Positions 7,444 to 36,359 are shown, numbered from the stretch's first letter. The stretch: DNA of 64,000 nt from an uncultured Spirochaetaceae bacterium (GCA_964537725.1 CAZICD010000002.1:32356-96355), one strand, 5' to 3'. The notes: generated from the sequence alone by a model not told the origin. Translations and numbers: made by a program.

Positions 7444-8706
7444 GTGCGTGTGAAGAAGATACTGGTGATCGACGAGTCGAAACTGTTCCGCGATTTTCTC
7501 ACCCAGAAGCTGGGCGAGTTCGGTTTCGAGGTTGTGGCGGCGGTCAACGGCCTCGACGGCGCGGCCAAGCTCCGACGCGAAATGCCCGACCTGGTGATCA
7601 TGGACTACTACCTCTCCCGTACCTCGTCGGTCGACCTCCTGGACAAGAAGAAGGACGACCCGAACACGAGCGACATCCCGGTGATCATGGCGTCGAGCAA
7701 GATCGACCGCGATAAGCTCGTACAGATCGCGCGGTTCAACGTCAGGAAGTTCTTCACGAAGCCGATTCGTATGGACGCGCTCGTCAAGACGATCTCCGAA
7801 GTGCTCGGTGTGTCGCTCGACATCGACACGACCCCCTGCATCATCGAGGCGCACTTCAACGACGATATCCTGTTCATCGAAATCGCCCAGGGCCTCAACA
7901 AGGAGAAGATCGAGCTCCTGCGCTACAAGATCGTCGAGCTCATGGATCTCTACGAAGTGAAGAGCCCCAGGGTACTCATCATCATGTCCAGCATCGAGGT
8001 CGGCCCCGACGACTCGTTCAAGCTTTCGGCGCTGTTCACGACGGTGATGGACAATACGAAGGCGAAGCCACGGCAGGTGAAGGTCCTGACGAACTCCGAC
8101 TACGTAAGCGAGTTCATCGCCGACCGCTCCGAGTACGAGGGTGTGGAGGTCACGAACAACCTCGAGAGCGCGATGGACGGGCTGCTCGGCCGAAAGGCCG
8201 GGAGCTACATCGACCGCGAGAGCAGGACCGTCCACCAGGAGTTCCTCCAGGCGTCGAGCCCGAAGAGCGACCGGGAGGAGTCGGTCGACATGAAGTTCGA
8301 GGGTGAGCGCGCCAGCTACGACCTGAACGAGCTCGGCGAGGCCGTGACGATCGCGATCGTGGACGACGACTTCGTGATCCGCGAGATGGTGAAGGCGGTC
8401 CTCTCGGACATGGGACCGACGATCCGGGAGTACGAGAACGGCAGGCAGTTCGTCGACGATTCCGACGTGTCGGGCTGCGATCTCGTCTTTCTCGACCTGA
8501 TGATGCCGGAGATGGACGGTTTCCAGGTGATGGCGCAGCTGCAACGCGACGGAATCGACGTACCGATCATCGTACTGTCGGCGCTTTCTCAGCGCGAGAC
8601 CGTGGTCAAGGCGATGAAGTTCGGCGTCACCAGCTATCTCATCAAGCCGCTTCAACCCGAGGCGGTGCTCAACAAGGCCCGGGAGGTCCTGAGGACGAAC
8701 TTCTGA
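7444..8706 (+). CDS. Response regulator with two receiver domains flanking an uncharacterised central region of about 160 aa; no recognisable output domain
   Basis: REC1: ILVIDES...DLVIMDYYL...VIMASS...FFTKP. REC2: IAIVDDD...DLVFLDLMMPEMDG...IIVLSALS...YLIKP. Both keep the acidic pocket, the phospho-acceptor Asp, Ser/Thr and Lys. Confidence 0.85.
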   Translation: MRVKKILVIDESKLFRDFLTQKLGEFGFEVVAAVNGLDGAAKLRREMPDLVIMDYYLSRTSSVDLLDKKKDDPNTSDIPVIMASSKIDRDKLVQIARFNVRKFFTKPIRMDALVKTISEVLGVSLDIDTTPCIIEAHFNDDILFIEIAQGLNKEKIELLRYKIVELMDLYEVKSPRVLIIMSSIEVGPDDSFKLSALFTTVMDNTKAKPRQVKVLTNSDYVSEFIADRSEYEGVEVTNNLESAMDGLLGRKAGSYIDRESRTVHQEFLQASSPKSDREESVDMKFEGERASYDLNELGEAVTIAIVDDDFVIREMVKAVLSDMGPTIREYENGRQFVDDSDVSGCDLVFLDLMMPEMDGFQVMAQLQRDGIDVPIIVLSALSQRETVVKAMKFGVTSYLIKPLQPEAVLNKAREVLRTNF

Positions 8707-11132
8707 TGTCCGGAATCGAACGACTCTTCAAGGCGATGTTCCAGAACTCGTCGATCGGCATGGCGGTCATCCGAGCGGACGGCACCTTCGTGCTCTCCAA
8801 CCCTGCGTTCGACGAGCTCGCGCACCGCGATGCCACCCAGGAGCTCCCGGGGACGCTGTGGGAGCTCTTCGCCGACGACGACCGCGACCCGTCGCGCGAA
8901 CGCGTGGCCACGCTTACGCATCCGGGCGAGCGCTACAGCTGGCTCGTGCACGTGGAGAGCCGCCGACGCCCGGTCTACTGGCAGCTCGACGTCTCGGTCG
9001 TCAGCGGCAGCGACGCCGATCCCCTTCTGCTGGTCAACGCCCGCGACGTCACGCTCCAGAAGAATACCGAGCTACGGCTCAAGCGCGCGAAGGACGACGC
9101 CGAGCGAGCGACCAGGACGAAATCGGCGTTTCTCGCGAACATGAGCCACGAGATCCGCACTCCCATTCATACGATCACCGGGATGACCGAGCTCCTTCTC
9201 GACACCGACCTCGACGAGGAGCAGCACGAGTACGCCGACCAGGTCCGCTTCGCCGCCGAGGTCCTGCTCTACCTGATCAACGATATCCTCGACTTCTCCA
9301 AGATCGAGGCAGGCAAGCTCTCGCTGGAGACTATCGATTTCGGCCTCGTGGAGGTCGTCGAGGAGGCGGTCGACATGGTGAGCCTGCAGGCTCACAAGAA
9401 GGGGATCGAGGTCGTCCAGTGGACCGGCCCCGTGGTACCGGGAGTCGTGAAGGGTGACCCGGGGCGGTTGCGCCAGATCATCGTGAACCTCTTCAACAAC
9501 GCTGTGAAGTTCACCGCCGAAGGCGGGGAGATCCGGATCACCTCGCGTGTCATCGGCCGACCCGACCGGCGCACACGCGTGCGCTTCGAGGTCATCGACA
9601 CGGGCATCGGAATCCCGAAGGAGAACCTGAGCCGTCTGTTCCGCGCGTTTACCCAGGTCGACTCCTCGACGACGCGCAAGTTCGGCGGTACGGGCCTGGG
9701 CCTGTCCATCTCGCAGAGCCTCGTCACGATGATGGGCGGGGAGATAGGCGTGGAGAGCGTCTACCGCGAAGGATCCACCTTCTGGTTCGAGATCCCCTTC
9801 GAGGTCGTCGAGCCCGCCGAGCACGAAGAGCCCATCTGCGACGAACGCAGGGTGCTGCTCGTCGACGATAACGCCTCCTCGGTCGAGACGATCCGAGAGT
9901 ACGTCGAGCGGTGGGGCGGTTCGGTTGCGGTCGCGGGCGGTCCACGGGAGGCGATGGACCGGCTCCACGAGGCCGCCGCCGGCGGTTCACCGTTCGATCT
10001 CGCGCTCATCGACCTCGAGCTGCCGGGCATGGACGGGTGGCAGCTCGCGAGCGAGATCAACGCGGACAAGGAGATCAACGGCACGTCGCTCATACTCCTG
10101 AGCCCGACCGGCCTCATGGCCGGCGAGGCGAAGATGAAGCGGCTGATGTGGTTCAACGGCTACGCGCGCAAGCCGATCAGTCGGGGCGAGCTGCAGGAGG
10201 AGATCTCCAACGCTCTCGCCGCCGACCTGGAGCTGGCGACGGTCGAGGACGAAGAGGAACTCGAGGACGGCGAGCTCGTCGAGGAGGTCTCACCGGCTTC
10301 AGCGCGACTCGTCGTCGCCGAGGACCACATGGTGAACCAGACCCTGTTCAAGGCCATTCTCGAGCGACTCGGCCACCAGGTCTTCCTCGCGGCCGACGGC
10401 AGGGAGGCTGTTGAAGCGGTGGAGCGCGAAGAGCCGGACATGGTCTTCATGGACGTGCAGATGCCCGAGATGAACGGCTACGAGGCGACCGAAGCGGTGA
10501 GGAGGTCCGGCTATCGCGGGCCGATCGTCGCGGTCACCGCGAACGCGGTCAAGGGCGAACGCGAGAAGTGCATCGCAGCCGGCATGAACGACTTCCTCGC
10601 CAAGCCGTTCAAGCGGGACGATCTCGTGCCCCTGCTCGACAAGTGGGTGGGCGCACGGCTGCCTGCCGAGCCCACCCCCCCCGACAGCGCGCCGCAGGAG
10701 CGCGCGAGAGACGACGATGCCGCCGGCGATGAGGGTTTCGAGATTCCGGCCGACCTGATCGGGGGTGGGCTCAGCGACGGCGCCCGACCGGCGTTCGACT
10801 TCGAAGCCGCCGTGTCCAGGTTCGCCGGGAACGCGGACGTCGTACGGACGGTTGTCTCGCGCTTCGTCGACAAGTGCGCGTCGATCGAGGAGGAGTTGCG
10901 CGGCTACCTCGACGACGGTGACTACGCGACGCTGGAGCGGGAAGCCCACGGGTTGAAGGGCGGCGCCCGCAATCTGGAAGCGCTGCCGCTCGGCGATGCG
11001 GCGGCGTTCCTCGAGGCGTCGGCGAAGATGGAAGACGAGAGGCGGTGCCGTCACTACTTGGACGAGCTCCGCGCGCCGCTCGCCGAGTTCGTCAGCGCCG
11101 CCGAGGCTTCGGTGCAGCCGGCGGAGACCTGA
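8706..11132 (+). CDS. Hybrid sensor histidine kinase: PAS-like, HisKA, HATPase_c, REC, REC, HPt
   Basis: H-box FLANMSHEIRTPIHTI; N-box NLFNNAVKFT; G-boxes DTGIGIP and GGTGLGLSIS. Two receivers (LIDLELPGMDG, VFMDVQMPEMNG). C-terminal HPt REAHGLKGGARNL. ATG 8706 overlaps the regulator stop (TGATG). Confidence 0.9.
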   Translation: MSGIERLFKAMFQNSSIGMAVIRADGTFVLSNPAFDELAHRDATQELPGTLWELFADDDRDPSRERVATLTHPGERYSWLVHVESRRRPVYWQLDVSVVSGSDADPLLLVNARDVTLQKNTELRLKRAKDDAERATRTKSAFLANMSHEIRTPIHTITGMTELLLDTDLDEEQHEYADQVRFAAEVLLYLINDILDFSKIEAGKLSLETIDFGLVEVVEEAVDMVSLQAHKKGIEVVQWTGPVVPGVVKGDPGRLRQIIVNLFNNAVKFTAEGGEIRITSRVIGRPDRRTRVRFEVIDTGIGIPKENLSRLFRAFTQVDSSTTRKFGGTGLGLSISQSLVTMMGGEIGVESVYREGSTFWFEIPFEVVEPAEHEEPICDERRVLLVDDNASSVETIREYVERWGGSVAVAGGPREAMDRLHEAAAGGSPFDLALIDLELPGMDGWQLASEINADKEINGTSLILLSPTGLMAGEAKMKRLMWFNGYARKPISRGELQEEISNALAADLELATVEDEEELEDGELVEEVSPASARLVVAEDHMVNQTLFKAILERLGHQVFLAADGREAVEAVEREEPDMVFMDVQMPEMNGYEATEAVRRSGYRGPIVAVTANAVKGEREKCIAAGMNDFLAKPFKRDDLVPLLDKWVGARLPAEPTPPDSAPQERARDDDAAGDEGFEIPADLIGGGLSDGARPAFDFEAAVSRFAGNADVVRTVVSRFVDKCASIEEELRGYLDDGDYATLEREAHGLKGGARNLEALPLGDAAAFLEASAKMEDERRCRHYLDELRAPLAEFVSAAEASVQPAET

Positions 11133-11138
11133 ATGTCG

Positions 11139-11167
11139 TTGATCGGCAGAGGTCGCGCTGGTATTCT
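11139..11167 (+). promoter_or_regulatory. Candidate sigma70-type promoter placed for a leaderless K+ channel mRNA
   Basis: TTGATC-N17-TATTCT. The -10 hexamer ends 9 nt before ATG 11177, and no Shine-Dalgarno sequence lies between them. Confidence 0.4.
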
Positions 11168-11176
11168 GGCGTCACC

Positions 11177-12343
11177 ATGAAACGGCAGCTCGGCAGGTTT
11201 CTGCACCGCTACCGCAACTCACGCTACGCCCGGCCGGTCATCGTCACCGTTTTCTTCCTCGTCGCCGCCGGAGCGCTTTCGGTCTTCCTCGAGTCGAGGT
11301 CGAACGACCAGTTCCGCGACCTGATGGACGGCGTGTGGTGGACGATCGTCACCTTCACTACGACCGGCTACGGCGACAAGGTGCCACAGACCGTCGGCGG
11401 TCAGATCCTCGCGATCGTGACGATCTTCGTGGGCGTCGGAGCGATGAGCCTGCTCTCCGGTGCGCTTGCCTCGCTCTTCGTCGAACGAAACACCCGTGCA
11501 AGGAGAGGCCTGATGGACTTCAAGACCCTGGAAGGGCATCTGGTGATCTGCGGATGGCGCGAAGATATGAAGGACATCCTGCGCGACATCCTCCATACGT
11601 CGTCGGATCTCGACTCGGATCACCTCGTGATCGTGTCCAACGTGGAGCCGGAGAAGGTGCAGGAGCTCCAGGAGGAGGAGGATCTGCGCGGCCTGAAGTT
11701 CGTGCGCGGTGACTACCACTCGGAGCTCGCGCTGCAGCGCGCGAACATCCGTGGGGCGCGAAAGGTCGTCATCATCGCGGACACGCTCGAGAGCTCGTCG
11801 GTGAGCGAGGTCGACAGCAAGACGGTCATGGCCGTGCTGACCGTGAAGAGCCTCGCACGCGACGTCTACGTCACCGCCGAAATACTCGACCGCAAGTACG
11901 AGAGCTACCTCAAGCACGTGCAGTGCGACGAGATCCTCTTCAGCCGCGACTTTGCCCGGCAGATGATCGCGTCGAGCTCGGCGACAAACGGTCTCTCGCA
12001 CATCATCCACGAGCTCCTCGGACAGGGCGCCGCCGGATCGCGGCTCGTGACGCTCGCGATCCCGCAGACGTTCGTGAACAGGACGTACGGTGAGTACCGA
12101 CAGAGCCAGCCGGCAAGCGACGGCCGGAGGCTCCTGCTCGGCCTGTTGACGAACACCGGGTCGCCGAACGCGATGAAGATCGAGGCGCTGCGCGACGCGC
12201 AGAAGACGAGCGACGTCTCGCAGCTGATCGTGAACATGCAGAAGGTCAAGGGCCTCGAGGTCAACCAGCCCGTCCTCCTGCCGCCGGATGACTACGAGAT
12301 CCAGCGGCACTCGATGGCGATCGTGCTCGAGAGGGAGGTGTAG
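11177..12343 (+). CDS. Two-TM K+ channel with a cytoplasmic RCK/TrkA-N domain (MthK-like)
   Basis: Selectivity filter TFTTTGYGD between two hydrophobic helices. Rossmann-like RCK domain: GHLVICGWREDM...KVVIIADT. Start taken at ATG 11177 (MKRQLGRF...) rather than the track start at 11045, which overlaps the kinase gene. Confidence 0.85.
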   Translation: MKRQLGRFLHRYRNSRYARPVIVTVFFLVAAGALSVFLESRSNDQFRDLMDGVWWTIVTFTTTGYGDKVPQTVGGQILAIVTIFVGVGAMSLLSGALASLFVERNTRARRGLMDFKTLEGHLVICGWREDMKDILRDILHTSSDLDSDHLVIVSNVEPEKVQELQEEEDLRGLKFVRGDYHSELALQRANIRGARKVVIIADTLESSSVSEVDSKTVMAVLTVKSLARDVYVTAEILDRKYESYLKHVQCDEILFSRDFARQMIASSSATNGLSHIIHELLGQGAAGSRLVTLAIPQTFVNRTYGEYRQSQPASDGRRLLLGLLTNTGSPNAMKIEALRDAQKTSDVSQLIVNMQKVKGLEVNQPVLLPPDDYEIQRHSMAIVLEREV

Positions 12344-12835
12344 ATGGACACCTCCGTAACCGAGAAACTGAAGCAGATTCCGCTCTTCGCGGATATCCGC
12401 GAAAACCACGACTACATGGAGCGGCTGCAGACGATCTGCCGCGCCACGAGCGTACCGGCCGGCAAGGTCGTGATCAAGGAAGGAGAGCGGGGCTCGGAGA
12501 TGTACATCATGCTCTCCGGGCGCGTCGAGATCAGGAGGCGCACCCGCGCCGGCGACGACTACACGGTCGTCAAGCTGAGCGCGCAGGACAACGTTTTCTT
12601 CGGGGAGATGGCTCTGATCGACGACGACGTCCGCTCGGCGACGATCGTGGCGACCGAGGACTCCGACTTCCTCGTCGTCACCAAGCACGACTTCCTCGAC
12701 CTCGGCGACCGGTTCCCGCAGATCGCGCTGCCGGTCACGCGGGAGATCGCCAAGATCCTCGCGAGCCGGCTGCGCAAGACCACCGGCGATATGCTCACGA
12801 TATTCGACGCGCTCGTCACCGAGCTGCAGTCGTAG
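12344..12835 (+). CDS. Stand-alone cyclic-nucleotide-binding (CAP/Crp-type cNMP) domain protein
   Basis: The beta-roll and phosphate-binding cassette are present: FFGEMALIDDDVRSATIVA. The ATG follows the channel stop directly (TAGATG). Confidence 0.8.
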   Translation: MDTSVTEKLKQIPLFADIRENHDYMERLQTICRATSVPAGKVVIKEGERGSEMYIMLSGRVEIRRRTRAGDDYTVVKLSAQDNVFFGEMALIDDDVRSATIVATEDSDFLVVTKHDFLDLGDRFPQIALPVTREIAKILASRLRKTTGDMLTIFDALVTELQS

Positions 12836-14087
12836 CGCGGTCGGACGGCCGGTCCCCACGAAGCAGGCGACGCATCTCTCCATGGCACATCACGATCACC
12901 GCGAGCGCTCCCGTGGCCGCCGCAAGCGCGGCAAAGAGCGCCGCGTACCGCGGGCGAAGCGCTTCCACCACGAGACCGGAGACGAGATAGGCCGCCGGCA
13001 ACAGCACGGCGGTCAGCATTTCGAGCGTCGCAAAGACGCGACCTCTCATTCCCGCCTCGACCGTGTGCTGGATCCTGGTCACTCCGATCATGTACATCGT
13101 TCCGATCGCGCCGCCGGCGAGGAACATGACGAGCAGCAGGATTGGGACGAGCAGGGGCGTGGCGGCCGCGCTCGGAGAGGCGAGCAGACCGAGCGTGGAG
13201 ATGACCGCCGCGATGAGCGGGAGCGCTCCGCGGTAGAGTCGCGCCTCGACGGGCGGCGTGGTCCGCGCGCCGGAGAAGACCGCGAACCCGGCGATGCCGC
13301 CGGCGAGGACGGCCGCGAAGAGGTAGCCGAAGAACTCCGTCGGCAGCCGCCAGACCTGCGAGATGGCGAACGGGAGCGCGACGACGAGCGGGGGCAGTAA
13401 CAGATTCGTCGCCGCCTGGACGAGCACGAGCGCGCGGATGCCGCGGTCCCGTAACAGCAGATCGATCCCGGCGCGGACGCGCGTTCCGAGCGGCTCCCGC
13501 GCCGGCGGTCGGCGCGGGCGTGCCCTGATCGCCGTCTCGGAGATACCGGAGAGAAGAAACGACACCCCGTTCAGCAGGATGAGAACCGGGGCGCCGAGCG
13601 CCACGTAGAGCGCTCCGCCCAGCGCGCTCCCGCCCATGTTCGCGATCTGGGTGAGGGCGCTTCGCAGCCCGTTCGCCCGCTTGAGGCGACGCGTCTCCAC
13701 GAGGTCGGGTAGCAGCGCGTGAACGGCGGGCACGAAGGCGACACCCGCGAGGCTGACTACCATCGTCGCCGCGATGAGCAGCCAGTAGGGCAGCCTCCCG
13801 AGGGTGAGTCCGACCGCCGCGGTGGCGAGCATCACGATCCCGCGCGCGATATCCGACCAGACGATCGTGCGCCTGCGGCTCCAGCTGTCGACGGCGGCCC
13901 CGGCTACCGGGCCCAGGACGGCCGCCGGCAGGTACGAAACGAACTGGATGATTCCCAGCGCCTGCGGAGAGTCGGTGAGCTCGGCGAGGTAGAGCACGAG
14001 CGTCACAACGTAGATGCTGCTGCCGAACGTTGATACAATGTGCCCGGCGAGCAGGAGGGAGAACCCCCGCGGCTTGCGACTCACCAT
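12816..14087 (-). CDS. MFS transporter (EntS/DUF894-like)
   Basis: About 12 predicted hydrophobic helices. N-terminal FSLLLAGHIVSTFGSSIY...VDSWSRRRT pattern is typical of the MFS_3 group. Confidence 0.8.
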   Translation of the reverse strand: MVSRKPRGFSLLLAGHIVSTFGSSIYVVTLVLYLAELTDSPQALGIIQFVSYLPAAVLGPVAGAAVDSWSRRRTIVWSDIARGIVMLATAAVGLTLGRLPYWLLIAATMVVSLAGVAFVPAVHALLPDLVETRRLKRANGLRSALTQIANMGGSALGGALYVALGAPVLILLNGVSFLLSGISETAIRARPRRPPAREPLGTRVRAGIDLLLRDRGIRALVLVQAATNLLLPPLVVALPFAISQVWRLPTEFFGYLFAAVLAGGIAGFAVFSGARTTPPVEARLYRGALPLIAAVISTLGLLASPSAAATPLLVPILLLVMFLAGGAIGTMYMIGVTRIQHTVEAGMRGRVFATLEMLTAVLLPAAYLVSGLVVEALRPRYAALFAALAAATGALAVIVMCHGEMRRLLRGDRPSDRATTAAR

Positions 14088-14128: not shown

Positions 14129-14989
14129 GTGGGATCGTACTACAACCGCAACACCCGCAGGTTCCTGCTCTCCGGGCACGGCGGCCGCCAGCTCGCCATT
14201 CACCGCGCCGTCTGGGGCCCGGGTGTCGCTTCGCGCGATCGCGCGATCGAGTACGTGAACGACCTGATCCTCGGCGAGCTCGAGAGCATGCGACCACCGG
14301 CGGATACGGCGACGCGGGTCGCGGATCTGGGGTGCGGTGTCGGCGGGAGCATGATCTACCTGCGCCGCAGGATGGATGCACGTTTCGTGGGTGCGACGAT
14401 CAGCGCCGTCCAGGCCGATCTTGCCCGCGCCTACGTTCGGGAACGGGGTCTGTCGGGCATAGACGTGGCGGAGGCCGACTTCACTTCGGATGAGTTCTGG
14501 GCGGCCTACGACGGACAACCGTTCGACGCGGTATTTGCCGTCGAGTCCTTCGTGCACGTCCCCGAGCTTCGCTCGAACCTGCCGGCCATCGCGCGCAGGC
14601 TGCGCCGCGGTGGGCGGCTCATCGTCGTCGACGATATGATATCGCGCGAGGCCGCGCGACGTTGGCCGGACCGACGCGAACGGAGGTGGCTGCGCGAGTT
14701 CGAGAAGGGCTGGTACGCCCACGGACTCGGGAGTCTCGAGCAGCTCGCGGCGGCAGCCTCTCAGGCCGGGCTCGTCCTCGACGAGGTACGCGATCTCACC
14801 GCGTACCTGGAGCTCGATCGCCCACGGGATATGGTCGCGCGTGCGTTCATCTCCGGCCTGCGATGGCTGCCGCTTCGGCCGGCCTGGTTCGACAATCTCC
14901 TGGGCGGTAACGCGCTGCAGCTTGCGCTCAAGCGTCGACTCTTCGGCTACTACTACGTCGTCTTCACCGCTCGCGAAGCTCCGGCGTAG
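14129..14989 (+). CDS. Class I SAM-dependent methyltransferase
   Basis: SAM motif I VADLGCGVGGS, a post-I acidic residue, and a later FAVESFVHVP...GGRLIVVD region. The start is uncertain: a strong AAGGAG at 14096-14101 lies 27 nt upstream of GTG 14129. Confidence 0.75.
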   Translation: MGSYYNRNTRRFLLSGHGGRQLAIHRAVWGPGVASRDRAIEYVNDLILGELESMRPPADTATRVADLGCGVGGSMIYLRRRMDARFVGATISAVQADLARAYVRERGLSGIDVAEADFTSDEFWAAYDGQPFDAVFAVESFVHVPELRSNLPAIARRLRRGGRLIVVDDMISREAARRWPDRRERRWLREFEKGWYAHGLGSLEQLAAAASQAGLVLDEVRDLTAYLELDRPRDMVARAFISGLRWLPLRPAWFDNLLGGNALQLALKRRLFGYYYVVFTAREAPA

Positions 14990-16406
14990 CGAGGTCGCTG
15001 CGCAGCGCGTAGACGTCGCCCGAAGCGCCGTGTACGGGCATCGCCCGCAGTCGCTCGGCCATCTCTTCGGCGGACAACCACCGGTCGCACGCGAAGCGCA
15101 TCGTTTCGACCATGGAGTAGGCGAACCGGTAGTCGCCGAGATTGGCGACCTCCCGGAGGCTCTGGAGCGCCGGCTCCATCGACGCGGGCAGGAACTCGAA
15201 GGAGATCGCCCCGACCGCGCGGCTGAGACCGGCGAGGACGTCCGGCTCGAAGCCCTCCACATCGATCTTGACGAAGGCAGGTTCGCCGTAGCTCTCTATG
15301 AGCGCGTCCAGCGTCGTCGTTCGCACCTGGATCTGTCGCTCCCAGCCGATGCCCTGTTCCGCGTAGTTCCGATCGATCGCTTCGGTCCACGCCCGGGAGA
15401 GCGTGGAAAGCGTCGGATGCTCGGCCGACACGTGCAGCGTCGCGCGGCTTTCGGAGGAGCCGCAGGCCGCGTCGACGATGCGCACCTCCGGGTCATCGCC
15501 GTAGAGCCGTTCGAGGAGCGCCACGCAGTGGGGTTGCGGCTCCACCGCAACCACGCGCGCTCCGAGCGCGCGCAGCGGCGCGATACGGTTTCCGACGTGC
15601 GCCCCCACGTCGAATACCAGGTCGTGAGGGCCGACGAAGCGGCGGTAGAAGCGACGGATCGCGAACTGGCGGAACGGTACCCCGTAGTAGATCACGATCG
15701 ACCTCAGAAGACCGCGCCGCAGCGCGCGGTCGCCCCGGCGGACGTCCCGCGCTCTCACGCGCAGCACCGCCTCCCACCCGAACGAGACGCCAAGCAGCGC
15801 GACCGCGACCGCGGCTGCCGCGAGGCGCAGCGTATGGAGATCGCCGCCGATCCTCAACGGCACGGCCGCGGCTATCAGGAGCAACGCGGCTGCCGCGCAC
15901 GCAGTCTTCGCGAAGAGCGAAAAGCCACGCGGGAAACGAGGCTCGGGGAGCGCGAGAAAGGGCAGCGCGGCGGCGTATCGAACGATCCCGGCGAGCGCGA
16001 CCCACGAGGGAAGGTCGAACCAGTCGACGAGGACGAGCGAGAGCGCGAGGATGAACAGCGCATCGGTCTCCATGTCCAGCCGGGCGCCGAAAGCGGTCGA
16101 GCCCATCCTGCGCGCGAGAAGCCCGTCGAGGTAGTCGCTCAGCTCGGCGACTACCGCCGCGAGGAACACGGTCGCGACCATGGCCGCCGAGGCGTCGCGA
16201 ACCGAGAGCAGCGCCAGCATGGCGATCGCGACCACGAGCCGGACAGAGGTGAGGAGATTCGGCGCCCGCCACGCGCCGCGCCCCGCCGCCGCAAACAGCC
16301 ACGCGAACGCCACGGCGGCCTCGACTGCGAGCAGCGTGGCGGTCACAGCCGGGTCGCCGCCGGCGAGGTGCAGCGTCACCAGCACGACCACCGCAAGCGA
16401 GTGCAT
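14964..16406 (-). CDS. Fusion: CDP-alcohol phosphatidyltransferase (N-terminal, membrane) + FkbM-family methyltransferase (C-terminal)
   Basis: The CDP-alcohol PT signature D-G-x2-A-R-x8-G-x3-D-x3-D is seen as DYLDGLLARRMGSTAFGARLDMETDAL, within hydrophobic helices. FkbM-like part: VFDVGAHVGN...VVAVEPQP...FVKIDVEGFEPDVL. Start taken at ATG 16406 (MHSLAVV...), 11 nt after the GT4 stop. Confidence 0.75.
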   Translation of the reverse strand: MHSLAVVVLVTLHLAGGDPAVTATLLAVEAAVAFAWLFAAAGRGAWRAPNLLTSVRLVVAIAMLALLSVRDASAAMVATVFLAAVVAELSDYLDGLLARRMGSTAFGARLDMETDALFILALSLVLVDWFDLPSWVALAGIVRYAAALPFLALPEPRFPRGFSLFAKTACAAAALLLIAAAVPLRIGGDLHTLRLAAAAVAVALLGVSFGWEAVLRVRARDVRRGDRALRRGLLRSIVIYYGVPFRQFAIRRFYRRFVGPHDLVFDVGAHVGNRIAPLRALGARVVAVEPQPHCVALLERLYGDDPEVRIVDAACGSSESRATLHVSAEHPTLSTLSRAWTEAIDRNYAEQGIGWERQIQVRTTTLDALIESYGEPAFVKIDVEGFEPDVLAGLSRAVGAISFEFLPASMEPALQSLREVANLGDYRFAYSMVETMRFACDRWLSAEEMAERLRAMPVHGASGDVYALRSDLATPELRER

Positions 16407-16417
16407 CGCGAGCCAGA

Positions 16418-17569
16418 TCAACGGTGCGGTCCTCCGGGCTCGCACCCGGCGGTGCGTTCGTCCGACCACGTCGCGCGCATCCGGTCGACCGCCGCGGTGA
16501 AGCGCGAGCGGACCGTGGACCAGTGGGGCAGCCCCGCTCCGCGCACGGCCGGGCTCGCGCCGGACGACGGCGTCGCCGCGTGTCGACCGGGCGCCTTCCC
16601 ACGGCTGATGGTGGTGCGAATCGCGTCGGCCAGCAGATCGGTCCGGCCCGCCGGGACAAGGAGCGCGGTTTCGTCGACGGCCTCCGGTACGGCGGCGCAA
16701 CGGTAGCCGACGACGGTGACACCGTGCGAGATCGCCTCCGCGTACACGATCCCGTAGCTTTCCATCAGCGACGGCAGAAGGAAGAGGCCGGCCCGGCGGT
16801 AGTAGGCGTGGAGCTCATCCGGATGCATCGGCTCCAGGAGCTCGACCCGGTGGTTGAGTCCGGCACCGCTGATGCGGTCCAGGACGGCCCGGACGTAGTC
16901 GCCGTTCGCGTCGTGGGTTCCGATGATCGTCCAGCTCCATTCCAGGTCTGCGAGTCCGGCGAGCGCCTGAGCTGCGTGCGCGATCGCCTTCGCCGGGCTC
17001 CAGTTCGCGACGGTGAGGATCATCGGCACCCCGGCACCGGTGCGCAATGAGTCGGTTTCAGAGGCGGGCCCGGCGGGCGTGCTCCCGCGGGTCGGATCGC
17101 GGCCGTCGCATACGGGAGCCGGCGGGATCACCGCGATGCGATCCTGCCCGAGACCGCGCCGGTTGAGCGCGCCGGCCATGAAGGCGCTCGGAGCCACCGC
17201 GCCGGCGCAGAGAGGAAGAAAGACACGCTCGCGCGCGAGCCACACCAGGCGGGTCGGTGCGTCCTCACCGGGGATGAGACTCGGCAGGCTGTGCGCGAGG
17301 AGAATCACCGGTATCCTGCGCGCCGTCCGGATGAGGGCATCGGCCTGTTCGGAGTCGAAGAGGAAGAGCGAGTCGACGATCGCCGTGTCGGACGCTTCGA
17401 GCGCGTCCAGCTCGTCGACGAGCTCGTCGGTCGTTGCGACCTCGGCTACCGCGTGCGCGCCGGATGCGAAGAGCCGCTCGTTGACGAGAAAGCCGCCGCT
17501 CAGGCGCCCGCCGGGTGCAGGGAGGACGGCGAGGGTACGTGCCCGATCTGCGGAGCCGGGTCGTCTCAT
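16418..17569 (-). CDS. GT4-family (GT-B) glycosyltransferase
   Basis: C-terminal GT-B donor-binding region LFLLPSLMESYGIVYAEAISHGVTVVGYRCAAVPEAV (E-x7-E type). ATG 17569 overlaps the PTPS-like stop (ATGA). Confidence 0.8.
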   Translation of the reverse strand: MRRPGSADRARTLAVLPAPGGRLSGGFLVNERLFASGAHAVAEVATTDELVDELDALEASDTAIVDSLFLFDSEQADALIRTARRIPVILLAHSLPSLIPGEDAPTRLVWLARERVFLPLCAGAVAPSAFMAGALNRRGLGQDRIAVIPPAPVCDGRDPTRGSTPAGPASETDSLRTGAGVPMILTVANWSPAKAIAHAAQALAGLADLEWSWTIIGTHDANGDYVRAVLDRISGAGLNHRVELLEPMHPDELHAYYRRAGLFLLPSLMESYGIVYAEAISHGVTVVGYRCAAVPEAVDETALLVPAGRTDLLADAIRTTISRGKAPGRHAATPSSGASPAVRGAGLPHWSTVRSRFTAAVDRMRATWSDERTAGCEPGGPHR

Positions 17570-17949
17570 CGGGCCTCGCGGTATCCGGCCCAGGCGTTCT
17601 CGTTTTCCCAGATTCTGATTTCGAGCGGCTCCTCCGGGGCCGCGCCGCGCGCGTCGAGCCCCTCGCGGATGCGCTCGACGAGGTAGACCGCGAGGTTCTC
17701 CAGGCTCGGCTGGCGGTCCGCGAACCACCGAAGGTCGTTCAGCAGCACGTCGTCGATCGATCCGAGGACCTCCTCGAGCACGGCCTCCATCGCAGCGATG
17801 TCGGTAGAGAACCCGTTCGCGTCGAGCGCGGCCGTACGCGCCACGAGCTCGACCCGGTAGGGATGCGAATGCGGTGTCGATTCGTCGCCGAAGTCGCCGA
17901 CGAGATAGTGCCTTGCCCGCAGCGGGCGAAGGACTCCTGCGGTGAACAC
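17566..17949 (-). CDS. 6-pyruvoyl-tetrahydropterin synthase / QueD family protein
   Basis: 127 aa, with a His-rich metal site HSHPYRVEL and an overall T-fold-size protein (RARHYLVGDFGDESTPHSHPYRVELV...). Confidence 0.8.
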   Translation of the reverse strand: MFTAGVLRPLRARHYLVGDFGDESTPHSHPYRVELVARTAALDANGFSTDIAAMEAVLEEVLGSIDDVLLNDLRWFADRQPSLENLAVYLVERIREGLDARGAAPEEPLEIRIWENENAWAGYREAR

Positions 17950-17957
17950 GAAACCTC

Positions 17958-18974
17958 CTACGGAACGAGGACGGCCTGCATCAGATCATCAGGCTCCTCG
18001 TCGATAAGATCGTACGCGCGCGCCGCATCGTCCAGCGCGAACCGATGGGTGATCAGCGCGCCCGGGTGCAATTCGCGCACGAGCCGCCAGACGAGCGCCG
18101 TCCTTCGGTCGCGTGACCATCGTGGCTGCATGGCCGGATTGAGGCTGGAGACCTGACTGCTTCGAATCGTGAGGCGGCGACGGTGAAACGCCGCTCCCAG
18201 CGAGAGCTCCGCGGTCTTCTCACCGTACCACGACGCCTCGACGACGGTGCCTTCGGTCTCGAGCGAGTCGATCGCGAGCTGGAGCGCCTGCGCCGACGAG
18301 CTTACGTTGATGGCGAGGTCGAACCGGTCGGGCCGGGTGCGGCTCGCGAGCGAGGCGGCCGCGGATGAGTCGGTGGGATCGACGGTCGCTACACCCGACC
18401 GCTCTGCCCGCCGACGTCTGCTCTCCACCGGCTCGACGGCGACGACCTCGACGGGAAACCGCGCGAGCAGCATCGTCACGAGGAGTCCGACCACGCCGAG
18501 ACCGCACACCAGAACCCGCTCCCCGAAGGCGGGCGCCGCGTCGTGCACGATCTGGAGCGCGGTTTCGACCGACGGATAGAGCACCGCGTCGTCGGGTCCT
18601 ATGTCGTCGGGCACCGGCAGAAGCGACGACGGGTCTGCCGCGAACACGTCGCGGTGCGGTTCGAAGGCGAACACGCGGCTTCCGTCGTCCAGCTCGCCCA
18701 CGTTCATGTACCCGTACTCGATGGGGTAGCCGGCGGAGCCGCCGACGGTGGGGCGCTCCTCGAGCAGGTGGCCGCTCGGGAAGGGGCCGCGGTAGAAGAG
18801 CCGCTCGGTCCCGTGACTGATGCCGATGAGCCGTGAGCGTACGACGACCTGCTCGTCGGTCCGGCTCACCGGCCGGCTTCGGACGCTCACGACGCCCGGG
18901 GATTCAAAGACGACCGTGCGCGCGGTGAGGTCATTCGTGGGCAAAGTCGATCTCCCAGACGATGTCGTCGCCAA
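17958..18974 (-). CDS. MDR-superfamily dehydrogenase, BchC-like, without the catalytic-zinc Cys pattern
   Basis: GISHGTERLF replaces the usual GICGSDxH. YPIEYGYMNVGEL follows, and the Rossmann motif is VLVCGLGVVGLLV. The start is TTG 18974 or TTG 18944. Either one overlaps the 3' end of the upstream reductase gene. Confidence 0.75.
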   Translation of the reverse strand: MATTSSGRSTLPTNDLTARTVVFESPGVVSVRSRPVSRTDEQVVVRSRLIGISHGTERLFYRGPFPSGHLLEERPTVGGSAGYPIEYGYMNVGELDDGSRVFAFEPHRDVFAADPSSLLPVPDDIGPDDAVLYPSVETALQIVHDAAPAFGERVLVCGLGVVGLLVTMLLARFPVEVVAVEPVESRRRRAERSGVATVDPTDSSAAASLASRTRPDRFDLAINVSSSAQALQLAIDSLETEGTVVEASWYGEKTAELSLGAAFHRRRLTIRSSQVSSLNPAMQPRWSRDRRTALVWRLVRELHPGALITHRFALDDAARAYDLIDEEPDDLMQAVLVP

Positions 18975-19608
18975 GCTGTCGCACCCGCCGTGTCGTGCCC
19001 CGCTGCGCCCCAGAGAGCTCCTCGATCCCCAAATCCCCGACGGCGTCGGTACCGCTGCCGACGACCATGGGGGCGCACACGAGCACGAGGCGGTCGACCA
19101 GGCGGGCGCGATAGAAGCTCGTCAGAACGGCCGACCCGCCTTCCACGAGCAGCGACGCGCATCCGAGTGCGCGCAGGTGCTCGAGGACGGCGCGCAGGTC
19201 GAGCCCTCCGTCGGTGGCCGGAACCGCGACGAGCTCGACCCCGGCCACCGTCAGCGCGTGGGCCCGCTGCGTGCACGCAGGGTCGGTGGCCGACTCTGCG
19301 TGGAATACGGATGTGGCGACCCCGCCCGCCTGCGCGACGACGTGCGCGGTGGGCGGGATGCGGAGCATTGAATCGAGCACGCAGCGATGGGGATCGCGGC
19401 CACCCTCGACCCGACACGTGAGGCGCGGGTCGTCGGCGATCACCGTGCCCGCGCCCACGAGGATCGCGTCGTGATCCCGGCGCAACTCGTGGGCCAGACG
19501 CAGCGTCTGCTCGCCGGAGATCCACTGCGACTGGCCGGTCGAGGTGGCGATCCGTCCGTCGAGGCTCTGTGCGTAGGTGAGGGTCACCCGTGGTCGCCGG
19601 TTGCTCAC
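18931..19608 (-). CDS. RibD C-terminal-domain reductase (diaminohydroxyphosphoribosylaminopyrimidine reductase-like); no deaminase domain
   Basis: RPRVTLTYAQSLDGRIA...ILVGAGTVIADDPRLT...LLVEGGSAVLTSF is a typical RibD_C/DHFR-like fold. Start taken at GTG 19608 (MSNRRPRVTL...). The 355-aa track ORF upstream part is Arg/Pro-rich shadow sequence. Confidence 0.8.
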   Translation of the reverse strand: MSNRRPRVTLTYAQSLDGRIATSTGQSQWISGEQTLRLAHELRRDHDAILVGAGTVIADDPRLTCRVEGGRDPHRCVLDSMLRIPPTAHVVAQAGGVATSVFHAESATDPACTQRAHALTVAGVELVAVPATDGGLDLRAVLEHLRALGCASLLVEGGSAVLTSFYRARLVDRLVLVCAPMVVGSGTDAVGDLGIEELSGAQRGTTRRVRQLGDDIVWEIDFAHE

Positions 19609-19712
19609 GGAGAAGAGTATACTAAACAAGTCGCGACGCGGCCTCGAAGGGCCGTAGTGGCGCCCTGGAAACGAGTTGCGCTTCCCCTGCGGGAACGGAG
19701 AAAGGGTTTGAA

Positions 19713-20426
19713 ATGGCCGATGTACGTACGAGAATCGAGAACGATCGGGAACGACTGCGATCGAAACTGCGGGCTGAGCCGAGCTTCCTGGCCGAGGACT
19801 TCTCCGCGCCGAAGACGGGCGACCCGCGCCCGGACAAGCCGCCACACGTTCACCTCGTCGCGTCGGCGGATCTGCCGACGCGCCGCGGCGATTTCCGCGT
19901 GTTCGGCTTCTACGACGAACGAGACCAGAAGGAGCACACGGCGCTCGTGCGCGGTGACGTATCGGGGAAGAGCGACGTTCCCGTGCGGGTGCACTCACAG
20001 TGCCATACCGGAGACGTATGGGGAAGCCTGCGGTGTGACTGCCGCGACCAGCTCGAGGCTGCCATCGAGTACATCGCCGACGCGGAGTACGGTGCGGTCG
20101 TCTACATGAAGCAGGAGGGGCGTGGCATCGGCCTGCTCAACAAGATCAAGGCGTACCAGCTCCAGGACCTCGGTCTGAACACGATCGAAGCGAACCACTA
20201 CCTGGGATACCCGGCGGAGGCGCGCGACTACGCGGTCGCCGCGAAGATCATCGAGCTCCTGGGGATCAAATCGATCGCGCTCCTGAGCAACAACCCGGAC
20301 AAGATCGCGAAGCTCGAGGCGGAGGGGGTGTCGATCACCCGCCGGATCCCGGTCGTTATCCCGTCCAACGAGCACAACGAGGGATACCTCGCCACCAAGC
20401 GCGCGGAGATGGGGCACCTGATCTAG
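19713..20426 (+). CDS. ribA: GTP cyclohydrolase II, monofunctional with no DHBP-synthase domain, and with an N-terminal extension of about 45 aa
   Basis: RVHSQCHTGDVWGSLRCDCRDQL (zinc Cys triad region), QEGRGIGLLNKIKAY and LLSNNPDK are all present. Confidence 0.9.
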   Translation: MADVRTRIENDRERLRSKLRAEPSFLAEDFSAPKTGDPRPDKPPHVHLVASADLPTRRGDFRVFGFYDERDQKEHTALVRGDVSGKSDVPVRVHSQCHTGDVWGSLRCDCRDQLEAAIEYIADAEYGAVVYMKQEGRGIGLLNKIKAYQLQDLGLNTIEANHYLGYPAEARDYAVAAKIIELLGIKSIALLSNNPDKIAKLEAEGVSITRRIPVVIPSNEHNEGYLATKRAEMGHLI

Positions 20427-24227: not shown

Positions 24228-25405
24228 TACGACTCCGGCCCGTCTTCGTCGAGGAGCCGGGCCTTCTTCACGCGCAGCCCCTGCTGACGCAGGCGATAGA
24301 CCGCCTGCTCGAGCCTCATGCGCTTCTCGCCCGACTGGTCGAAGAGGTCCTGCTGTCCGTCGGCGGGGCCGCTCTCCACGTTGCCGAGGCCGCACCCGAT
24401 CAGCCGAACCGGCGTGATCCGGTCCCACTTCGAACGCAGCAGCTCGCGCGCGGTGCGGTAGAGTTCGTCGGCCGACGTGACCCCGTGGTCGAGTGTCCGC
24501 CGCATCGTAAACGTCGTGAAATCGCTGAGTCGGAGCTTCAGCGTGACCGTTCGCGAGTGTCCGCCCTCGTCCATCAGCCTGAACATGCACGTATGCGCGA
24601 TCTCGAGCAGCGCGCGCTCGATCGCGTCGCCACTCGTCACGTCGTTTTCGAAGGTGCGCTCGCCGCTGATCGAGTGACTCGACCGCGCCTCGCTGTAGAG
24701 CCCGGGGTCGATGCCTCGCGCGATCGCGTGAAGATAGTGAGCAGCGCCGGGCCCGAGCTCGACTGCGAGCTCCTCCTGCGTGTACTCGCGCAGCTGCGGC
24801 ACGGTCCCGATCCCGAGCGCGTGCAGCCGGGCGAGCATCTTCTTTCCCACGCCCCACATCGACTTCAGCGGGAGACGTGCGACAAAATCGGCCTCCTGCC
24901 CGGGCTTTACGACGTGGAAACCGTCGGGCTTGTCCACCTCGCTCGCGAGCTTTGCGAGATAGCGGCTCGGAGCGATTCCCACCGAGATAGTCAGCCCGGT
25001 CTCCTCACGCACGCGCGCCTTGATCGTGCGCCCGACGTCCTCCGGATCGCCGAGCAGGCGCCGCGTTCCGGTGAGGTCGAGAAACGCCTCGTCGACCGAC
25101 ATCTGCTGGAGCGTGGGCGTGTACTCGGAGAGGATCGCCATGATGTGGCTCGACACCTCCTGGTAGCGGCGCATCCTCACCGGCAGGTAGACGCCCTGCG
25201 GGCATAGCCGGTACGCCTGGCTGATCGGCATCGCGGAGTGGATTCCGAACGGCCGGGCCTCGTAGGAGCAGGCCGATACCACGCCACGGTGCCCCGGGGC
25301 GGCGCCCACGATCACCGGCTTGCCGCGGTACTCCGGGTTGTCGTGCTGCTCGACCGACGCGTAGAACGCGTCCATGTCCACGTGGACGAGTACCGGATGG
25401 CTCAC
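24227..25405 (-). CDS. dinB: DNA polymerase IV (Y-family)
   Basis: VLVHVDMDAFYASVEQ, VIVGAAPGHRGVVSACSYEARPFGIHS and SVDEAFLDLTG are present. GTG 25405 overlaps the upstream gene's stop (GTGA). The 1132-aa track ORF is a read-through artefact. Confidence 0.9.
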   Translation of the reverse strand: MSHPVLVHVDMDAFYASVEQHDNPEYRGKPVIVGAAPGHRGVVSACSYEARPFGIHSAMPISQAYRLCPQGVYLPVRMRRYQEVSSHIMAILSEYTPTLQQMSVDEAFLDLTGTRRLLGDPEDVGRTIKARVREETGLTISVGIAPSRYLAKLASEVDKPDGFHVVKPGQEADFVARLPLKSMWGVGKKMLARLHALGIGTVPQLREYTQEELAVELGPGAAHYLHAIARGIDPGLYSEARSSHSISGERTFENDVTSGDAIERALLEIAHTCMFRLMDEGGHSRTVTLKLRLSDFTTFTMRRTLDHGVTSADELYRTARELLRSKWDRITPVRLIGCGLGNVESGPADGQQDLFDQSGEKRMRLEQAVYRLRQQGLRVKKARLLDEDGPES

Positions 25406-36349: not shown

Positions 36350-36359
36350 TTATGATAGT

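Follow-up and report, generated by a model that had tools for sequence, protein, structure and literature searches.

A conserved gene cluster in an uncultured Spirochaetaceae genome and its possible role in making a GTP-derived membrane lipid

A 64-kb stretch of DNA from an uncultured Spirochaetaceae bacterium (the whole stretch is called the window below) carries a tight string of five minus-strand genes encoding a RibD_C-only reductase, a BchC-like MDR dehydrogenase, a PTPS-like protein, a GT4 glycosyltransferase, and a CDP-alcohol phosphatidyltransferase fused to an FkbM methyltransferase, with a GTP cyclohydrolase II gene transcribed divergently (Table 1). The sequence data indicate that this locus is one conserved biosynthetic module and not a set of riboflavin genes beside an envelope operon. 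In the reading that we prefer, at a probability of roughly 0.5, the module turns GTP into a glycosylated, methylated ring compound that is linked through a phosphodiester to a membrane lipid. The direct observations behind it are the enzyme families, the operon structure, the conservation of the gene set across phyla, and a specificity residue of the reductase that is not the bacterial one.

Conservation of the gene set across phyla

Relatives of the PTPS-like gene were scanned in one genome per species, contigs with homologues of the fusion gene having been looked up beforehand, and 86 loci were scored by tblastn for each cluster gene of the window. The genes for the RibD_C reductase, the dehydrogenase, the PTPS-like protein and GT4 were syntenic in 71 loci, which span Spirochaetota, Delta-, Alpha-, Beta- and Gammaproteobacteria, Chloroflexota (including Roseiflexaceae) and Acidobacteriota, at least six phyla; annotated plasmid records add Actinomycetota to the carriers. 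The cluster was located on plasmids of Agrobacterium, Rhizobium, Methylosinus, Microbacterium and Streptomyces, and annotated examples were found in A. tumefaciens pAt, Rhizobium SL42, Microbacterium, Thiodictyon, Methylosinus OB3b and S. fungicidicus. An earlier note on this DNA had made its proposal hang on the downstream genes being conserved together with the ribA/ribD-like genes, and this association held in about 70 loci.

Partner genes were counted in the 42 loci whose flanks extend for 7 kb or more on each side, the CDP-alcohol transferase and the sulfatase-like gene within 10 kb. GT4 was present in 42/42 and RibD_C in 41/42 of these long-flank loci, and the dehydrogenase was present in all core loci. 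GTP cyclohydrolase II stood beside the core in 29/42; a CDP-alcohol transferase was also found in 29/42, from four phyla, and a membrane protein of about 530 amino acids (aa) with a sulfatase domain in 27/42. Less frequent partners were a methyltransferase of about 300 aa 3' of GT4 (23/42), FkbM (17/42), the CMAS-like methyltransferase of the window (17/42), an MFS transporter (12/42), an MprF-type flippase-like protein (8/42) and cytochrome b (4/42). Six loci from the same scan with a canonical CxxxHGH QueD, a built-in negative control, contained none of the cluster genes. All-against-all family clustering yielded no further family in more than 14 loci except lineage-specific synteny genes.

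The cytochrome b gene is small and lies beside the RibD-family gene (L089 12011-12544, L091 11528-12085 and L093 12026-12565; also in L060, L074 and L086). The copies that bear it belong to Alpha-, Beta- and Gammaproteobacteria, and this neighbour hints at a redox role of the product.

Enzymes of the cluster and a proposed route from GTP

Domains were called on the window's open reading frames (ORFs) with Pfam and NCBIfam (release 20, June 2026) profiles, the Pfam search covering 49 ORFs; the nine domain calls made earlier were all reproduced. GTP cyclohydrolase II matched E. coli RibA (2bz0) at 4.7e-58 and retains the zinc cysteines (C-x10-C-x-C) and the catalytic Tyr (NKIKAYQL). This Tyr is present in 44/44 cluster-linked cyclohydrolases, so the normal diaminopyrimidinone is expected; the predicted product from GTP is 2,5-diamino-6-ribosylamino-4(3H)-pyrimidinone 5'-phosphate. 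The divergent orientation of the gene and its 45-aa N-terminal extension were both as the earlier note had described them. The extension (window 19713-19850; MAD...SKL...P.F...DF) aligns with that of two close relatives (L001 and L002), indicating that it is real. In the Agrobacterium copy, a domain of about 170 aa takes its place at the N-terminus. On plasmid p1 of S. fungicidicus (L092 11645-13138), a creatininase-family gene adjoins ribA in the cluster copy. The archaeal formamide hydrolase (deformylase) ArfB is a member of the creatininase family, and this copy may thus use the archaeal two-step route to the diaminopyrimidinone.

The reductase contains PF01872 RibD_C alone, with no deaminase match by Pfam in the part of the ORF upstream of the domain, and its relatives are 217-226 aa long. 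Its top PDB match is 6p8c, a 2,5-diamino-6-ribosylamino-pyrimidinone 5'-phosphate (DAROPP) reductase (6.9e-34). In bacterial RibD/RibG the deaminated substrate (AROPP) is picked by a Lys (Lys151 in B. subtilis RibG, Lys152 in E. coli RibD), the position is occupied by Thr in fungi and by Asn in archaea, and the T35K exchange in yeast Rib7 switches the substrate preference (PMC3631187). The window reductase has Thr there (VTLTYAQSLDG aligned to VTLKAAASLDG), and about 66 cluster-linked reductases have S/T/A/Q/H/L, Lys being found in none. With no bacterial Lys and no deaminase, the 2-amino-4-oxo ring would be kept.

No deaminase, ribB, ribH or ribE Pfam family was detected among the 49 ORFs of the window, and an Rfam scan of the whole window found no FMN riboswitch and 0 families at the gathering score. 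An ordinary bacterial rib operon was ruled out by these absences and by the missing AROPP-selecting Lys. The earlier note had also offered a dull alternative, that ordinary riboflavin genes (ribA and the ribD reductase) lie by chance next to an unrelated envelope or glycolipid operon. The cyclohydrolase and the reductase do pass the NCBI cut-offs for ribA and for the ribD C-terminal domain, and the view is restricted to 64 kb of the genome, so that a second rib set could lie outside. This alternative is nevertheless contradicted by the synteny with dehydrogenase, PTPS and GT4 genes over six phyla, accessory plasmids included, by the translational coupling of the reductase to the dehydrogenase, by the specificity position that is never Lys, and by the lack of any deaminase, rib neighbour or FMN riboswitch; we consider it very improbable. 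Several of the accessory plasmids with a cluster copy belong to bacteria that bear rib genes on the chromosome as well.

In the dehydrogenase the only Cys lies within the Rossmann motif; the cysteines that serve as zinc ligands are all absent, as is an ADH_N domain. The Rossmann motif GLGVVG is followed by an acidic residue and is of the NAD type. Among solved structures it comes nearest to butanediol, sorbitol, iditol and galactitol-1-phosphate dehydrogenases, and the enzyme is predicted to oxidise a secondary alcohol on a polyol side chain.

The PTPS-like protein retains the His triad (H14, H27 and H29) in the motif GDFGDESTPHSHPY (ESTPHSH), has Glu at the position of the QueD Cys, and bears a C-terminal WENENAWAGY motif. 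Its top PDB match is SCO6650 (3d7j, 4.6e-4). The SCO6650 structure paper reportedly describes a lost zinc site and catalytic triad; the window protein differs in this feature, its three His being present. An alignment of 66 homologues and a neighbour-joining tree placed the cluster-linked PTPS proteins in one group with ExxxHxH and FGPAQ subclades. At the same syntenic position, the PTPS-IV signature was found, as FGPAQRMHGHTY in Roseiflexaceae and as FGPAQRMHGATY in proteobacteria; FGPAQ also occurs in the Actinomycetota copies of the cluster. HGA replaces HGH only in the proteobacterial/actinobacterial clade, and the window protein has HSH. PTPS-IV has been described by the signature FGPAQ together with a genome neighbourhood containing a PF00925 GTP cyclohydrolase II (PMC5445326). 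The window protein has FGDES in place of the signature, and the divergent GTP cyclohydrolase II is four genes away; its mean tree distance is 0.80 to PTPS-IV and 0.80 to QueD. The protein is a positional orthologue of PTPS-IV (SCO6650) and not a signature-level member. The PTPS-IV locus of Streptomyces anthocyanicus is surrounded by MEKHLA and cupin genes with the cluster genes absent, indicating that not all PTPS-IV genes belong to this cluster. In L002, a spirochaete contig of 5.5 Mb, no PTPS-like gene lies between those for the dehydrogenase and GT4 (8968-10004), and GT4 was called as a 105-aa fragment; this cluster copy may be decaying.

RefSeq/PGAP labels the homologues '6-carboxytetrahydropterin synthase', with a queuosine Gene Ontology term, and 'zinc-binding alcohol dehydrogenase'. 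These names are generic or wrong, as the QueD cysteine and the zinc ligands are missing. That the PTPS-like gene encodes QueD, as this annotation and the intact His triad would have it, or a PTPS-III-type enzyme of the folate bypass, is the least credible explanation that we weighed. The QueD model (TIGR03367) failed with 38.3 bits against a cut-off of 89.25, Glu stands where CxxxHGH has its catalytic Cys, and the window spacing is ExxxHxH (ESTPHSH), not the ExxHGH of PTPS-III (motifs from PMC5041015). Genes queC/E/F or fol were found in none of the annotated loci, and the loci with a true CxxxHGH protein have no cluster.

Another explanation is the supply of a deazaflavin or flavin precursor, with the reductase, the cyclohydrolase and the PTPS-IV-like protein forming an archaeal-type early riboflavin/F420 branch, the T-fold protein serving, for example, as the missing deaminase, and the other cluster genes being tailoring or unrelated genes. 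The fungal/archaeal-type residue of the reductase and the creatininase-family gene next to S. fungicidicus ribA are consistent with it, and PTPS-IV was said by Zallot et al., as unpublished work, to act in F420 synthesis (PMC5041015). Against this stand the absence of cofG/H (fbiC), cofC/D/E, ribH and ribE among the annotated loci, the family clustering with no other widespread family, the presence of GT4 in every long-flank locus, and the frequency of lipid-handling genes, which together leave the explanation improbable. Many of the carriers, such as spirochaetes and Agrobacterium, are not known to produce F420.

The nearest solved structure to GT4 is MshA (3c4q/3c48, 1.4e-10), an enzyme that adds a sugar to inositol phosphate, followed by sucrose-phosphate synthase (6kih), both of which take phosphorylated polyol or sugar acceptors; the MshA model TIGR03449 failed, with 43.5 bits against 462.5. 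In the fusion protein, the hydrophobic segments reach about residue 217, and the CDP-alcohol transferase motif is complete (DYLDGLLAR-RMGSTAF-GARLDMETD, for D-x2-D-G-x2-A-R...G-x3-D-x3-D). The best matches of this domain and of its stand-alone homologues, all weak, are PgsA, PIP synthase and PssA, which use polyol-phosphate or small-alcohol acceptors; the pgsA equivalog failed on the fusion (36.7 bits against 109.1), and PgsA in the PDB matched at E = 0.016. A putative polyol-phosphate theme is supported by the nearness of GT4 to MshA, of the dehydrogenase to polyol dehydrogenases, and of the CDP-alcohol transferases to PgsA/PIP synthase.

The fusion is kept in Spirochaetota and in one Rhodospirillales metagenome-assembled genome. 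In Rhizobium sp. SL42 the CDP-alcohol transferase and FkbM are encoded by adjacent separate genes, which makes the window fusion a Rosetta-stone link. One arm of that locus holds the sulfatase, flippase-like, FkbM, CDP-alcohol transferase and ribA genes, and the divergent arm the dehydrogenase, PTPS, GT4 and methyltransferase genes, the RibD and cytochrome b genes being in convergent orientation. In Micromonospora, FkbM homologues that stand alone have an unrelated gene context. The CMAS-like methyltransferase of the window matches the lipid-modifying CMAS family and, wherever co-located, lies beside CDP-alcohol transferase, FkbM or sulfatase-like genes. The window MFS is of the EntS/efflux (MFS_3) type and is a variable accessory gene of the cluster.

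The sulfatase-like partner of the relatives has 4-5 N-terminal transmembrane helices followed by PF00884 with the motifs FVESYGH and GDHQP, an arrangement shared with LtaS, EptA and OpgB. PDB and NCBIfam searches with it were uninformative, and it was identified only by PF00884 and this architecture. MprF-type LPG_synthase_TM flippase-like genes lie inside the cluster in relatives. The earlier suggestion of a phospho-alcohol or lipid link has thus gained strength, as in relatives the predicted CDP-alcohol transferase travels with MprF-type flippase-like and LtaS/EptA-type sulfatase-family proteins. On pOB3b1 of M. trichosporium OB3b (L088 6079-7881), the cluster adjoins a divergent mdoH gene of periplasmic glucan synthesis. 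Periplasmic glucans are known acceptors of phospholipid-derived head groups moved by sulfatase-family enzymes.

In the proposed route, GTP cyclohydrolase II would open GTP to 2,5-diamino-6-ribosylamino-pyrimidinone 5'-phosphate, as its homology and catalytic residues suggest, and the stand-alone reductase would convert this compound, still non-deaminated, straight into its ribityl form, the order of steps known from fungi and archaea. For the next steps, purely by extrapolation, we infer that the zinc-less BchC-like dehydrogenase could oxidise a secondary alcohol of the phosphoribityl chain and that the PTPS-IV-like T-fold protein could process the product. An equally conjectural variant would have oxidation at C2' recreate the amino-ketone intermediate of GTP cyclohydrolase I, which would close to a dihydroneopterin-3'-phosphate-like pterin; a neopterin-phosphate-like pterin is for this reason possible. 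The polyol-phosphate side chain would receive a sugar from the MshA-like GT4, and methyl groups would be added by the FkbM domain and by the CMAS-like methyltransferase, the enzyme classes of all three being evident and their substrates presumed. The FkbM-fused CDP-alcohol transferase would then attach the head group by a phosphodiester, most probably to diacylglycerol from CDP-diacylglycerol, which would give a membrane-anchored glyco-phospholipid. In relatives with flippase-like and LtaS/EptA-type enzymes, flipping of the lipid would be followed by transfer of its head group to an acceptor in the envelope.

Several points weigh against this route. Every step of it is inferred from sequence, and the survey was seeded on the PTPS gene, so that its frequencies are conditional on the presence of PTPS. 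The window contains neither a sulfatase-like nor a flippase-like gene, so that the pathway would end here with the lipid itself or with an MFS-exported compound; second copies of cluster genes are absent from the window as well. Neither a cytidylyltransferase nor a CDP-diacylglycerol synthase that would identify the donor is present in the cluster, and CDP-alcohol transferases also make soluble phosphodiesters, as does di-myo-inositol phosphate synthase. Proteobacterial PTPS-IV has lost one zinc histidine, and the window protein keeps all three. The unpublished remark linking PTPS-IV to F420 synthesis (PMC5041015) points elsewhere as well. The CDP-alcohol transferase was missing within 10 kb in 13/42 long-flank loci, and in five spirochaete loci without it (L011-L013, L015 and L019) the MFS gene directly follows GT4; this ending and the efflux-type MFS of the window fit soluble export. 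A minimal version in Competibacter and relatives (L050-L056) and in Phycisphaerales (L055) has only PTPS-IV, GT4 and the ~300-aa methyltransferase, set among housekeeping genes (TsaA-like, CorA, sigma factor and SurE) with the reductase, dehydrogenase and lipid genes absent nearby, and the core product may accordingly be a soluble glycoside.

These last observations bear on the strongest competing explanation, in which the core makes a soluble glycosylated, methylated pterin or pyrimidine metabolite (a cofactor, pigment or signal) exported by the MFS, and the CDP-alcohol transferase adds a soluble phospho-alcohol of the di-myo-inositol phosphate kind or belongs to a loosely coupled envelope module. 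The loci lacking the transferase, the minimal loci, the GT4-MFS endings without lipid genes and the MFS_3/efflux type of the window transporter all favour it, as do the nearest solved GT4 relatives, whose acceptors are soluble phosphorylated compounds. Cyanobacteria and green sulfur bacteria are known to have pterin glycosides that GT-B transferases make. It is, however, at odds with the CDP-alcohol transferase and the sulfatase-family membrane protein being as frequent as they are, with neither in the control loci, with the MprF-type flippase-like genes inside the cluster, with the Rosetta-stone fusion, and with a cluster that has no cytidylyltransferase for making a soluble CDP-alcohol. We judge a soluble product to be rather unlikely, though to be taken seriously and well ahead of the riboflavin, F420 and queuosine explanations.

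The preferred reading, that of a lipid-linked product, can be taken further, and here we are tentative. The cluster might define a new class of bacterial membrane lipid with a GTP-derived head group bearing a sugar and methyl groups, which in many bacteria would be moved onto the envelope by the flippase-like protein and the LtaS/EptA-type transferase. Two structures come into question: a 2-amino-4-oxo ribityl-pyrimidine, and a neopterin-like pterin that would be formed by a 'redox Amadori' route of reductase and dehydrogenase bypassing GTP cyclohydrolase I. The head group could be a redox-active or light-absorbing decoration of the envelope, cytochrome b being encoded beside the cluster in several proteobacteria. 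Ribityl-pyrimidine derivatives are a class of molecule recognised by MR1-restricted T cells.

For the dehydrogenase, the PTPS-like protein, GT4 and the fusion, NCBIfam release 20 gave no family at cut-off except generic domain or subfamily models, and no characterised pathway for the cluster was found in the full-text literature searched. The earlier statement that the genes match no recognised pathway thus stands in that no family or paper names one; it falls short in that the PTPS member belongs to the PTPS-IV/SCO6650 group, whose cyclohydrolase II neighbourhood had been noted (PMC5445326). The component families and the association of PTPS-IV with GTP cyclohydrolase II are already known (PMC5445326), and a tie to phospholipid head-group machinery was not found reported in the literature searched. 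PTPS-IV/SCO6650 and the extra GTP cyclohydrolase II/RibD-like paralogues have no published function despite a crystal structure, and the analysis links them to a defined set of about 10 genes and to that machinery. If true, the new-lipid proposal would explain what PTPS-IV/SCO6650 and these additional GTP cyclohydrolase II paralogues do, and would mean a new membrane head-group chemistry in bacteria and a new fate for riboflavin-pathway intermediates. The carriers include the cultivable and genetically tractable Agrobacterium, Rhizobium, Methylosinus, Variovorax and Streptomyces.

Gene junctions, promoter region and surroundings

The five-gene minus-strand string described in the earlier note, with its overlaps and gaps, was borne out by direct reading of the sequence. 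With its TTG start at 18974 (or 18944), the dehydrogenase gene overlaps the end of the reductase gene (stop at 18931) by 44 or 14 nt, and no terminator or promoter was found between these two overlapping genes. An 8-nt gap containing GGAGG separates the dehydrogenase from the PTPS-like GTG at 17949; an ATGA overlap (17569-17566) joins the PTPS-like and GT4 genes; and the fusion ATG at 16406 follows GT4 after an 11-nt gap. The fusion gene and the class I S-adenosylmethionine (SAM) methyltransferase gene converge with a 26-nt overlap (14964-14989), which, like the neighbouring MFS gene, agrees with the earlier account by reading and by Pfam. Five terminator-like sites were found against 2.5 +/- 1.7 expected, all within coding sequence, and none divides the cluster genes beyond chance.

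Table 1. Positions of the cluster genes and associated features in the 64-kb window, with the profile matches on which each call was made.
Feature	Position	Strand	Profile match or other evidence
MFS transporter (MFS_3/EntS-like)	12816-14087	-	MFS_1 1.5e-26; MFS_3 4e-22
Class I SAM methyltransferase (CMAS-like)	14129-14989	+	Methyltransf_25 3.9e-13; CMAS 36 bits vs cut-off 27
CDP-OH_P_transf::FkbM fusion, whole gene	14964-16406	-	PF01066 47.8 bits vs 22; TIGR01444 91.1 vs 37.7
FkbM SAM methyltransferase domain, soluble C-terminal half of fusion	14964-15689	-	PF05050 2e-14, 54.5 bits vs 22.7; TIGR01444 91.1 vs 37.7
CDP-alcohol phosphatidyltransferase domain, N-terminal membrane half of fusion	15702-16406	-	PF01066 47.8 bits vs 22
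GT4 (GT-B) glycosyltransferase	16418-17569	-	PF13692 (Glyco_trans_1_4) 8.5e-20; PF00534 4.2e-18
PTPS-like T-fold protein	17566-17949	-	PF01242 77.9 bits vs 22.4
BchC-like MDR dehydrogenase	17958-18974	-	ADH_zinc_N only, 44.6 bits; bchC model 61.7 bits vs 291.25
RibD_C-only reductase	18931-19608	-	PF01872 9.4e-47; TIGR00227 169.5 bits vs 150.15
Conserved TTAGTATACT element	19616-19625	-	Only invariant block of divergent intergenic region
GTP cyclohydrolase II, monofunctional	19713-20426	+	PF00925 1e-61; TIGR00505 229.2 bits vs 205.85

In the divergent spacer, TTAGTATACT (palindrome AGTATACT) ends 7 nt before the reductase GTG and is the only invariant block in the otherwise diverged, GC-rich spacer of the window and of L001, L002, L007 and L008. 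It is unique in the window, where 0.06 matches are expected by chance, and occupies the same place upstream of RibD_C in the relatives (L001 6917-6926, L002 7318-7327, L007 8324-8333 and L008 8328-8337), its distance to the reductase start being 7-20 nt across these five sequences. A role as a special operator was dropped, since TATACT also occurs upstream of the DapL gene and fits a -10 element. The block is probably the -10 element of the operon promoter; the operon mRNA would then be leaderless or have a very short leader, which would explain the missing Shine-Dalgarno sequence before the reductase.

The window has a GC content of about 68% and is chromosomal, with tRNA synthetase genes, Mur ligases and histidinol dehydrogenase aboard. 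It is most closely related to metagenome-assembled genomes of Spirochaetota: the fusion protein reaches 96% identity with proteins of metagenome assemblies, and an uncultured Spirochaetaceae genome (L007) shows 70-89% identity to the window, gene by gene.

The cluster is flanked at 7444-12835 by genes for a double-receiver response regulator, a hybrid histidine kinase with an Hpt domain, a K+ channel with an RCK domain and a cyclic nucleotide-binding protein, syntenic in L001 and L007 and with no evident tie to the cluster. Two further ORFs are syntenic in L001 and L002: a HAD-hydrolase::HhH-GPD (base-excision glycosylase) fusion at 2938-4299, and an 832-aa phosphoglucomutase-like ORF with an N-terminal extension of about 260 aa at 4286-6784. 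Downstream of metG (34363-38498) are encoded a FemAB-family protein, a thioredoxin-like protein, and a 730-aa protein with a C-terminal FGE-sulfatase domain, which is formylglycine-generating-enzyme-like. Large ORFs with a coding-type GC bias at the third codon position and no Pfam match at E <= 1e-4 lie at 25402-27600 (-), 43368-44837 (-), 57755-59020 (-) and 60026-61939 (+).

Comparison with known systems

The PTPS-like protein has its best solved match in PTPS-IV (SCO6650, 3D7J) and shares with it the N-terminal AxH..G.FG and the C-terminal (W/H)E(S/N)xxAWAxY; it differs in having FGDES instead of FGPAQ and HSH instead of HGA, with the three zinc histidines kept. The dehydrogenase resembles BchC (3-hydroxyethyl bacteriochlorophyllide a dehydrogenase) in being a zinc-less MDR protein with bchC as its top NCBIfam match, and its motifs GISHGTE and GYPIEYGY are similar to what we take to be BchC motifs. 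However, TIGR01202 gave 61.7 bits against 291.25, the carriers are mostly non-phototrophs, and the window has no bch genes.

The first steps are closest to the early riboflavin/F420 steps of fungi and archaea, in which GTP cyclohydrolase II or ArfA/ArfB is followed by Rib7/ArfC before deamination. The stand-alone RibD_C without a fused deaminase, the Thr at the Rib7 Thr35 position and the DAROPP reductase 6p8c as top PDB match are common to both, whereas here the host is bacterial, downstream riboflavin genes are absent, and the reductase has a dehydrogenase, a T-fold protein, GT4 and lipid enzymes as its partners. The toxoflavin tox cluster likewise places an extra ribA/ribD-like pair in a non-riboflavin cluster with SAM methyltransferases; it is set apart by domain content, as the present cluster has only the reductase half of RibD and combines it with a BchC-like dehydrogenase, a T-fold protein, GT4 and a CDP-alcohol transferase, which differ from the tox partner enzymes.

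The later steps recall the logic of phosphatidylinositol, phosphatidylinositol mannoside and mycothiol synthesis (PgsA1/PgsA; PimA, MshA), which also combines a CDP-alcohol transferase and a GT4 enzyme with polyol-phosphate acceptors. The scores are far under the equivalog cut-offs given above for pgsA and MshA, the transferase is fused to FkbM, and in place of inositol or glycerol the proposed polyol would be a ribityl or pterin side chain derived from GTP. In comparison with the head-group systems of MprF and of LtaS, EptA/MCR and OpgB, both genes are absent from the window, and the sulfatase-like protein has no NCBIfam or PDB match; the relatives nevertheless encode an LPG_synthase_TM flippase-like protein and a PF00884 membrane protein with the architecture of the enzymes that move phospholipid head groups onto envelope acceptors.

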